DNA of 30,734 bases from a virus. Taxonomy: Duplodnaviria > Heunggongvirae > Uroviricota > Caudoviricetes. How positions within the stretch are numbered: position 1 is the first letter of the stretch; each line of letters opens with the position of its first letter. The notes beneath the pieces are model-generated. The model had not been told where the DNA came from. It saw only the letters and a program-made list of their open reading frames with translations, and made no database searches. The position numbers and the translations under genes were made by a program. The stretch is from the IMG/VR virus record IMGVR_UViG_2879765931_000001; one strand, given 5' to 3'. Below, in pieces: positions 25,123-26,037 of the stretch.

Positions 25123-26037
25123 TCAGAATGTCAGTTTGTCACTGGATTTACCGAATTTGTCAGACATGGCTCCCAGGCCAGCCAGGACATCGACCTGTCG
25201 CTGTCGCCCACCTCTGGGAGCGGCTGGCTGTTGCCAGAAGTCTTCGAAGTGACGATCGGGTCCAAAGAACGTCGCAGCCTGCTTCACGAACTGTGTGCCG
25301 GTATTTCCTGTGGCACGTACCCAGGCAGCATAGCGTTTCACGCCATCAAGCATGGCTTCAGGTTTTATTCCCTCCCTGAGCCGGGCTTTCCAGGCTTTGA
25401 AGGCTGCGGATTTTGAGTTACCACCAGCACGTTTTGGATATTCCTGCCAGGCCTGTTCAAATTCCGGTGAATATTCCTGTCGGGAAGAACGCGCTGGTGC
25501 AGACGCGTCAGCGGATGCGCCAATAGTGTTTTTACTCTCTGTAGTATTCTCTGAAGTAATCTCTGTTGTATTCTCTGTAAGATCGAAATTGGTTTTCCCT
25601 TCTCCGCGGCGAGGGGTTTCCCGTGTCCGCGGTGAAGGCTTTCCCTCCTCCGCGAAATTGGGTTTTACAGTTTCCCGAAAACGGGTTTCCCCATTTCGGG
25701 AAAACTGATTGTTTTCATTGATAATTTCATTAAGGCGCTCACAATCTATACGGTAGAACATTTTGTGCTCAAGACGCTTGTTGGTTTCAACCAAAATGCC
25801 TCTGGACACAAGATGCTTACGCGCTACAGCCTGTTGTTCAAATGTAAGTCCGGTTTCGTGTTGTATCTCTTCACGCGTTTTATGTACGCCTTCCGCTGCA
25901 TGTGCTTTATCCTGCCAGTAAAAAATCTGACCAAAGAAAATAACAGCGTGCGGACTTCCCATGTATTTAACGAGCCCAGGGTAATAAGCAACCGGATGTC
26001 CAAAATCGAGCAGAAGATCAGACGGACGCATAGCCAC
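25123..26037 (-). CDS. Replication initiator (lambda O-like replisome organiser with Thr/Glu-rich linker)
   Basis: 304 aa; N-terminal domain of O-type; the central TENTTEITSENTTESKNT stretch is encoded by tandem iterons, as in lambda O/ori. Confidence 0.8.
   Translation of the reverse strand: MAMRPSDLLLDFGHPVAYYPGLVKYMGSPHAVIFFGQIFYWQDKAHAAEGVHKTREEIQHETGLTFEQQAVARKHLVSRGILVETNKRLEHKMFYRIDCERLNEIINENNQFSRNGETRFRETVKPNFAEEGKPSPRTRETPRRGEGKTNFDLTENTTEITSENTTESKNTIGASADASAPARSSRQEYSPEFEQAWQEYPKRAGGNSKSAAFKAWKARLREGIKPEAMLDGVKRYAAWVRATGNTGTQFVKQAATFFGPDRHFEDFWQQPAAPRGGRQRQVDVLAGLGAMSDKFGKSSDKLTF
25530..25710. repeat. Origin-like iteron array inside the O-like gene (four ~12-bp repeats TAnTCTCTGnnG, three ~22-bp repeats with TTTCCC...TCCGCG core, then a palindrome TTTCCCGAAAACGGG/CCCATTTCGGGAAAAC)
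   Basis: Direct and inverted repeats read in the sequence; the location inside the initiator gene parallels ori-lambda. Confidence 0.6.

Follow-up and report, generated by a model that had tools for sequence, protein, structure and literature searches.

The DNA considered here is a 30,734-nucleotide stretch (the window) from a virus of the class Caudoviricetes, IMG/VR record IMGVR_UViG_2879765931_000001, in which two adjacent arrays of short repeats lie within a gene for a replication initiator. It is likely that the segment at 25531-25733 serves as the vegetative replication origin of a lambdoid prophage, embedded where the prophage's own initiator gene codes for a linker. In the proposed mechanism, dimers of the winged-helix N-terminal domain (N-domain) of the initiator would bind five iterons phased at 23 bp (25591-25705), two of which form a 33-bp palindrome, and the resulting nucleoprotein complex would strain the adjoining block of 12-bp repeats (12-mers, 25531-25578) until it melts. 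The C-terminal domain (C-domain) would recruit the phage DnaC-like loader and DnaB-like helicase, with loading taking place on the opened strands. Binding, melting, helicase loading and origin activity are all inferred by analogy with ori-lambda and with oriL of phage SPP1. While an origin is in itself an expected feature of such a prophage, a 12-mer with codons frozen across phyla is not, and this block appears to be a constant module, used throughout a single large superfamily of initiators from phages and plasmids irrespective of iteron sequence or loader partner. A lambda-like origin plan is here combined with an initiator family which is not that of lambda. The features concerned are the following.

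25123-26037, minus strand: replication initiator gene (304 amino acids, aa) containing the repeats; PHROG phrog_270 'replication initiation protein', E 5e-65
25708-26037, minus strand: part coding for the N-domain (aa 1-110), a winged-helix DNA-binding domain and presumed iteron reader
25693-25733: AT-rich flank of the iterons on the side nearer the promoter; within the replication module, only one 40-bp window is less stable
25660-25705: iteron units 4-5, containing the near-palindrome; TTTCCCGAAATGGGGAAACCCGTTTTCGGGAA is the best conserved DNA in orthologues
25591-25659: iteron units 1-3, direct 23-bp repeats; unit in gene sense approximately (Y)TCnCCGCGGAnnnGGGAAAnCC
25581-25584: single GATC (Dam site) at the junction of iterons and 12-mers, kept as TTCGATC in 8/8 type-A orthologues
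25531-25578, minus strand: four tandem 12-mers, in gene sense ACAGAGAATACA, ACAGAGATTACT, TCAGAGAATACT, ACAGAGAGTAAA; AT-rich, presumed to act in opening or loading
25273-25479, minus strand: part coding for the C-domain (aa 187-255), helical, with the motif YPKRAGGNSK; presumed helicase-loader contact
24234-25121, minus strand: DnaC-like helicase loader gene; Pfam IstB_IS21 E 1.6e-15, Bac_DnaA; PHROG 50 E 6e-90
22846-24237, minus strand: DnaB-like replicative helicase gene; Pfam DnaB_C E 3e-72 and DnaB N-terminal domain

Both repeat arrays are real and far above chance. Tandem Repeats Finder detected the 12-bp array with a period of 12, 3.7 copies, 81% matches and a score of 67, corresponding to four copies on the plus strand at 25533-25580 in the register of the program and at 25531-25578 in that of the codons, while the 23-bp array was detected with a period of 23, 2.7 copies and a score of 80. 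These are the top two of three arrays scoring at least 40 in the whole window, the third being a 21-bp array at 5796-5816 with a score of 42. The self-match at period 23 reaches 62 over 92 bp, as compared to a maximum of 42 elsewhere in the window (mean 23.3, standard deviation 4.2), and that at period 12 reaches 28 over 36 bp, as compared to a maximum of 20; TTTCCC occurs five times within 100 bp at the arrays and 21 times in 30.7 kb. Three clear 23-bp copies with the pattern GGnTTTCCC...TCCGCG start at 25591, 25614 and 25637, together covering 25591-25659, and units at 25660 and 25683 keep the same phase, which extends the array to five units (25591-25705). An inverted repeat with 15-nt arms at 25671-25685 (TTTCCCGAAAACGGG) and 25689-25703, 87% complementary, coincides with units 4 and 5 and forms a 33-bp near-palindrome at 25671-25703; as single-stranded DNA (ssDNA) this segment folds with -13.8 kcal/mol (z = -3.5 against shuffles). 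Since all units share the 23-bp phase, the palindrome and the 23-mers constitute one array. The first-pass annotation of this DNA had described repeats of about 12 and about 22 bp together with an inverted repeat, all of which were recovered where it had placed them, the larger period being 23 bp. Its division of the repeats into two iteron families does not hold, given a single phased array that includes the palindrome, and 12-mers that are constant across initiator types. The gene lies on the minus strand, and in its sense the order is palindrome, 23-mers, GATC and 12-mers.

With its period of 23, the larger array has the three or more direct repeats of about 17-23 bp, or about two helical turns, by which theta origins of the iteron type are recognised. 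DnaA boxes or integration host factor (IHF) sites often accompany iterons without being required there; none was found in 25300-25950 when searched as TTATCCACA with at most one mismatch, TTWTNCACA and WATCAANNNNTTR, and the same segment contains one GATC. An Rfam search of 24000-27000 gave no match within the repeat region, and promoter and terminator scans of 25000-26800 returned no more sites than shuffled sequence, the sole predicted terminator having been rejected as the palindrome read on the non-transcribed strand. It might be argued that the repeats bind the initiator for control, through autoregulation, copy-number handcuffing or the exclusion of related phages, and that the origin is located elsewhere in the prophage. 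Plasmid iterons also serve control, cloned phage origins interfere with phage growth, as in the lactococcal 'Per' systems, and the comparison of arrays spans the 30.7-kb window only, so that a distant origin is possible. Nonetheless, the next array in the window is the 21-bp one with its score of 42, and the layout is that of two proven in-gene origins, so control with an origin elsewhere is given a small chance.

The initiator gene is followed on the minus strand by the DnaC-like and then the DnaB-like gene. Its product belongs to no Pfam (E <= 0.01) or NCBIfam family. At the DNA level the gene is 96% identical to 'replication protein O' genes of many phages converting for Shiga toxin (Stx1a or Stx2a), an identical copy has been found in the chromosome of E. 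coli O121, and the 3' half is common to phage phiP27. The C-domain is 91-96% identical in initiators with unrelated N-domains, phage phiP27 among them. The same protein has been named inconsistently, as 'LvrA C-terminal domain-related protein' in RefSeq (NZ_CP119441.1, 3029457-3029857) and as 'replication protein O' or 'primosomal protein I' in phage records. Under the proposed reading, a probable origin is assigned to a replication module that many Stx1- and Stx2-converting phages have, and the toxin output of Stx phages depends on phage replication. In an AlphaFold2 model, an N-domain at aa 16-110 with the topology H-H-E-H-H-E-E-H and a helical C-domain at aa 187-255, each with a predicted local distance difference test (pLDDT) of 70-81, are joined by a disordered linker at aa 111-186 (pLDDT 31-36). 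The repeats encode aa 112-168, with the iterons at aa 112-149 and the AT-rich block at aa 153-168, and lie wholly within this linker. Foldseek matches in the PDB were to generic winged-helix proteins (E 0.007-0.03), including the N-domain of staphylococcal plasmid RepA, and have been used for fold class only; a profile search of all PDB sequences returned nothing at E <= 1.

Repeats in such a linker could be devoid of any function as DNA, having arisen by slippage in a low-complexity sequence or being kept for the peptide they encode. The 12-mers are indeed in frame, giving a TE[IN]T peptide repeat, and the region is predicted to be disordered. However, 23 is not a multiple of 3, so that the 23-bp units shift frame with each copy, and the three clear units are read in three frames with no peptide repeat. 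A codon alignment of nine orthologues, found via the protein and 51-85% identical, gave third-position identities of 0.43-0.45 in the folded domains, 0.62-0.72 in the iterons and 0.89 in the 12-mers, while those at first and second positions were 0.76-0.86, about 0.69 and 0.83, respectively. Where residues are identical, the same codon is used in a fraction of 0.47 in the folded domains, 0.69-0.85 in the iterons and 0.89 in the 12-mers; among the iterons the value is 0.69 for units 1-3, while units 4-5 keep the codon in 85% of identical-residue pairs, as compared to 47% in the domains. As synonymous sites are conserved beyond those of the folded domains, the alignment indicates that the repeats are under constraint at the DNA level; a recent transfer of the segment can be ruled out as an explanation, given how poorly first and second positions are conserved. 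Conservation is highest at synonymous sites and, as described below, the element persists on Bacillus plasmids that lack the gene, all of which makes an explanation without DNA function very improbable. The objection that protein-coding repetition might account for the arrays, which had been raised in the first-pass annotation, fails on the three reading frames and the conserved synonymous sites.

The sequence of the 23-bp repeats changes with the type of N-domain. When another N-domain type is joined to the same C-domain, different repeats occur in the same place with the same 23-24-bp period: type B carries TGTGGAAACCCnGCAAAC at 23-bp spacing, type C carries ATyGGkTCAAAAyG at 23-24 bp, and phiP27 has repeats of the TCAGAwTCTGA type. 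In a protein where the type-C N-domain is combined with a homologue of the lambda O C-domain (34% identity, E 1e-27), the type-C iterons are retained. Across 120 viral loci among the matches listed, a mean of 19.5 ten-mers is shared within an N-domain subtype in the 115 nt upstream of the 12-mers, as compared to 0.06 between subtypes; of 21 subtype representatives, again among the matches listed, 20 have their best repeat period at 22-24 bp. This co-variation is the pattern expected of initiator binding sites. Taking into account the three reading frames, the synonymous conservation and the change in sequence with N-domain type, the 23-bp units are probably iterons, at which binding of the initiator is predicted.

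The 12-mers show the opposite behaviour, being the same in all N-domain types A, B, C and D. In gene sense the repeat reads ACAGAGAWTACT, and the block comes after the last iteron and a conserved TTCGATC. In the window the block has a GC content of 32% (25520-25580), constitutes the least stable 40-bp window of the replication module (-45.9 kcal/mol, as compared to a mean of -57.5 with a standard deviation of 3.3, and to -46.5 for the AT-rich flank at 25693-25733), and as ssDNA is unstructured on either strand. A plan of type-specific 22-24-bp iterons followed by two to five in-frame copies of ACAGAGAWTACT, four in the window, has been found in 20 of 21 subtype representatives, as well as among phages from other phyla. 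The 40-bp core of the block has a match, mostly at 97.5%, in about 1634 of 5426 complete E. coli genomes, where the genes concerned are annotated as 'replication protein O' or 'hypothetical'. When viral contigs were scanned for the pattern, the 12-mer was detected in at least 120 loci which, among the matches listed, carry it in frame as TE[IN]T in 118 of 120 cases, mostly in open reading frames (ORFs) of 250-400 aa, and which include no fewer than 21 subtypes of the N-domain and no fewer than 10 C-domain clusters. In a blastn search of phage genomes, the block occurred in 110 records from phages of Acinetobacter, Klebsiella, Erwinia, Vibrio, Burkholderia, Bacillus and Staphylococcus, and in the rows with annotation it was always intragenic, mostly in a gene named replication initiator, with no intergenic case. 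Escherichia phages are also among the carriers with differing 22-24-bp iterons, and plasmid records with the block come from Nostoc and Marinobacter. Staphylococcus phage 37 (35% GC), Bacillus phages BtCS33 and PM1, Acinetobacter phage IME-AB2, Burkholderia phage DC1 (67% GC) and an ORF on a Nostoc plasmid each have their own 23-bp iterons followed by 12-mers of the ACAGAGATTACT type, and the GC content of the loci examined ranges from 34% to 67%. The Nostoc ORF (Nostoc sp. HK-01 plasmid2, L182, 841-2253) is 471 aa long, lies upstream of dnaB, and comprises a winged-helix-like N-terminus, repeats of about 23 bp of the AATTTACCAAAAAG type and then ACAGAGATTACATCAGAGATTACTTCAGAGACTACT.

Codon use in the 12-mers is close to fixed. 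When only copies not forced by the search pattern are counted, Glu is encoded by GAG in 93/93 cases (39% in the rest of the same ORFs), Ile by ATT in 22/22 (50%), Asn by AAT in 37/37 (52%) and the first Thr by ACA in 67/78 (28%). The block also occurs without the gene. Plasmids of 8.4 kb of the pBSG3 type in Bacillus carry PM1-like iterons and three perfect 12-mers outside any initiator ORF, the longest ORF across these repeats having 88 aa and neither initiator domain. Because codon use is fixed and the block persists on plasmids without the gene, sequence comparison indicates that the 12-mer is a nucleic-acid element and not merely a peptide. In pBSG3 itself (NC_014104.1, L181), a small mobilisable plasmid with a 'protein rep' gene of its own, the PM1-like iterons and three perfect ACAGAGATTACT 12-mers are located at 700-850, and at least six similar 8.4-kb plasmids occur in Bacillus velezensis/amyloliquefaciens; the element could be a captured phage origin, acting as a decoy for phage replication or as a hitchhiker on it. 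Full-text searches for the 12-mer and its peptide gave only unrelated papers among the matches listed, the older subscription literature (e.g., Weigel and Seitz, 2006) being outside their coverage. In the literature covered, neither the 12-mer nor a group of winged-helix initiator origins linked by it, as proposed here, was found described.

These observations bear on the possibility of a composite origin, in which 23-mers and 12-mers would both be duplex specificity sites, for two proteins or two domains. Both arrays are tandem, they adjoin each other and they show DNA-level conservation, and there are known origins in which initiator sites of two kinds occur together. However, the 12-mers remain unchanged across at least 21 N-domain subtypes, in which the 23-mers all differ, and across at least 10 C-domain types, and on account of this constancy cannot set specificity. 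A spacing of 12 bp does not align successive sites on one face of the helix, and the 12-mers occupy the place of the AT-rich region of lambda. Two sets of duplex specificity sites are thus unlikely. The suggestion of a composite or hybrid origin made in the first-pass annotation is retained in the usual sense of lambdoid mosaicism, with modules that recombine, and not otherwise. The more plausible arrangement, an origin split into fast-changing iterons matched to the N-domain and a 12-mer constant from Staphylococcus to Burkholderia and Nostoc, offers a simple and testable way into the question of how DNA is opened and a helicase loaded by such initiators. In addition, the 12-mer can be used as an inexpensive marker when looking for origins in the thousands of prophages and phage-plasmids that lack annotation.

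Recombination shuffles three modules independently, namely the N-domain together with its iterons, the 12-mer block, and the C-domain. The window and initiator P0047 have the 12-mer block and C-domain in common and differ in N-domain and iterons, whereas between P0047 and locus L052 the block is common and the C-domain differs. These mosaic joints lie directly beside the block, as would be the case if it were kept mainly as a shared linker for homologous exchange of N- and C-domain modules. However, selection for future exchange is weak, the 12-mer is constant even though phages of Staphylococcus, Burkholderia and Nostoc cannot recombine often, and the phiP27-type joint is situated further downstream, at a GC-rich segment encoding IGASADAS, so that a role mainly in exchange has little probability.

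As regards what accompanies the 12-mers, an iterative jackhmmer search seeded with the window N-domain recovered 120 of 123 N-termini tested, including all 117 from genes bearing 12-mers and the phiP27-type P0075; Staphylococcus phage 37, BtCS33, PM1, IME-AB2 and DC1 were among the matches. Lambda O, SPP1 G38P and P0087 were not matched among the 123 N-termini. Being iterative and run on a small custom set, this search constitutes support rather than proof. In a scan of species-representative genomes, mostly C-domain relatives with other N-domains and without 12-mers were found, which indicates that the 12-mers travel with the N-domain superfamily and not with the C-domain. Partners vary among 12-mer loci, with C-domains of the lambda-O, Phg_2220_C and YPKR types, and with DnaC-like loaders, a lambda-P-like gene or the helicase directly downstream. 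The constant element across these loci is the N-domain superfamily, hosts and partners being different. On a metagenome contig (L043, 3001-4456, protein P0032), a window-type N-domain, iterons and 12-mers are found with a different C-terminal tail, followed by a lambda-P-like gene (Pfam Phage_lambda_P) in place of the DnaC-like and DnaB-like genes, in what looks like a natural swap of loader partner.

Several points weigh against the proposed origin and its mechanism. The 12-mer matches in viral contigs and phages were found via the DNA motif itself, an ascertainment bias only partly corrected by the protein-found orthologues and the non-forced copies, and the homologue sets are phylogenetically non-independent, so that the codon counts overstate significance. 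Sequence alone does not fix the exact binding site inside the 23-bp unit. The AlphaFold2 model is moderate, with a mean pLDDT of 56, and the fold matches are weak (E about 0.01). The phiP27-type branch (P0075, 5e-9) belongs to the same N-domain superfamily and has other AT-rich repeats with no 12-mers. Moreover, in the AT-rich phages Staphylococcus 37 and IME-AB2 the stability of the block deviates from its surroundings by a z of about 0.8, as compared to 2-3 in GC-richer hosts.

This last point is relevant to whether the block is a passive, easily melted AT-rich element and flexible Thr/Glu-rich linker whose exact sequence is irrelevant. Its low GC content, its rank as the least stable 40 bp of the module and its lack of structure as ssDNA are all consistent with such a role, as is its position, which corresponds to that of AT-rich regions with differing sequences in ori-lambda and SPP1 oriL. 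A mere AT-rich stretch would nonetheless be expected to drift, whereas neither the exact sequence nor the codons change between 34% and 67% GC, also in the Staphylococcus and Acinetobacter phages, where the block is no less stable than its surroundings. The z of about 0.8 in AT-rich phages argues against a purely thermodynamic unwinding element, and ease of melting alone does not explain why the exact sequence is retained. A passive block is therefore considered improbable, if less so than the alternatives above. Since the exact sequence is kept even where melting is not unusually easy, the 12-mer block is probably read in a sequence-specific manner.

DnaA, TrfA and RepE bind melted unwinding elements as single strands. 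A conserved part of the initiator, most plausibly in its N-domain, may, by analogy, read the melted 12-mers as single strands, a suggestion made tentatively and judged to fall somewhat short of an even chance. O proteins have been reported to bind ssDNA in vitro (PMC7466680). It is possible, though rather doubtful, that the ACAGAGAWTACT repeat is a cross-phylum signal for opening and helicase loading, read as ssDNA by a conserved surface of the winged-helix superfamily. If so, phages and plasmids would have in it an equivalent of the DnaA-trio, or of the way in which unwinding elements are recognised as ssDNA at chromosomal origins; loader types and iteron specificities would be freely swappable around it, and plasmids with iterons and 12-mers lacking the gene could exploit the replication of an infecting phage or interfere with the phage. 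Each 12-mer also has a CTG, the start triplet of E. coli primase, on its T-rich strand; this is unlikely to be the cause of the conservation, since primase preferences differ between phyla.

Additional observations concern the neighbouring part of the window. A strong match in Rfam to C4 antisense RNA, which belongs to immunity regions of the P1/P7 type (RF01695, 74.8 bits, E 4e-14), is located at 26866-26953 on the minus strand, upstream of a Rha/antirepressor-like ORF (26248-26682) and inside the Phage_ASH-matching part (roughly 26780-27065) of a minus-strand ORF at 26758-27588. The Rha-like ORF, on the minus strand with a TTG start, matches only positions 32-91 of the 91-position Pfam Phage_pRha, and relatives (L044) carry a 219-aa Ash-Rha fusion in its place; the window copy may be split or frameshifted. 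On the plus strand, an ORF at 26785-27459 ends in a Gp49/HigB-like toxin domain (PF05973, E 1.7e-24, last ~90 residues) and is overlapped at its end by an HTH_3 protein at 27449-27757. The two are likely a toxin-antitoxin pair, lying on the strand opposite the early operon and overlapping the Ash-like ORF and C4 RNA region. A full-length NinB (PF05772, E 2.5e-56) is encoded at 27972-28382 on the minus strand, upstream of the replication genes in terms of transcription, whereas in lambda it is found downstream.

When compared to known systems, the proposed origin shares with chromosomal and plasmid origins the presence of short tandem AT-rich repeats adjoining initiator sites. In E. coli oriC and in oriV of plasmid RK2, AT-rich 13-mers beside the initiator sites are melted and then bound by the initiator as single strands. 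The window repeats are of another sequence and are also translated, and the DnaA boxes of oriC have no counterpart in 25300-25950. The origin repeats of RepA_N plasmids lie within the rep gene. Initiators of this group (pSK41 RepA; PDB 4pt7, 4pql, 5kbj) have a winged-helix N-domain and are among the best fold matches of the window protein, but the match is weak (E 0.014-0.03, TM 0.21-0.46), with no sequence match to solved structures.

The plan resembles that of SPP1 oriL, an experimentally established origin inside gene 38 (PMC5499656). Binding boxes and, after them, short AT-rich tandem repeats are located there within the organiser gene, between the parts coding for the N- and C-domains of G38P, and in Staphylococcus phage 37 one of the C-domains found with the 12-mer block is of the G38P type (Pfam Phg_2220_C). 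Nonetheless, the G38P N-domain was not retrieved by the window N-domain profile, and the AT-rich repeats of SPP1 are 9-mers (AATGATAAC) rather than the 12-mer. Among Stx phages, 933W and P27 have lambda-type origins with six iterons, the additional iterons lengthening the O protein, and their AT-rich region is needed for opening and not for iteron binding (Kozlowska et al., 2020, PMC7466680). Their origins likewise lie within the initiator gene; they work with true lambda O and P, whereas the window represents a non-O/P replication module of Stx phages. Studies typing such modules (PMC8044961, PMC8951638) mention neither iterons nor a replication origin. An oligonucleotide from PMC7466680 was considered as an Stx-phage AT-rich region and dropped, as it matches the oriC 13-mers.

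The likeness to ori-lambda, which the first-pass annotation had pointed out, is borne out by the array in the mid-gene linker, the AT-rich block downstream of it and the DnaC-like and DnaB-like genes that follow. In both cases the array occupies a mid-gene position in the initiator gene, where a linker connects the DNA-binding N-domain to a loader-recruiting C-domain, with the iterons at codons 117-144 in lambda and 112-149 here. Four to five sites with dyad character are spaced at 20-24 bp (lambda O has four iterons), and an AT-rich block, A-rich on the sense strand, follows them at nearly equal codon positions. In a protein with a lambda-type C-domain, the peptide encoded by the 12-mers aligns opposite that from the AT-rich region of lambda. 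A local alignment of the lambda AT-rich run with the 12-mers scored 24, as compared to 15 +/- 2.6 when shuffled (p about 0.007), which was too weak for homology to be accepted. The gene had been called O-like, and the term applies by analogy but not by family: the window N-domain does not match Pfam PF04492 Phage_rep_O, for which lambda O scores 5.7e-36, and kinship with lambda O was rejected at an hhalign probability of 0.3%. The C-domain is also of another type, with BLASTP finding no similarity between the window protein and L052, which has a lambda-O-type C-domain (E 1e-27). The partners are a DnaC-like loader and a phage DnaB-like helicase instead of lambda P and the host DnaB, and the AT-rich part of the origin is here a precise 12-mer repeat shared across phyla.

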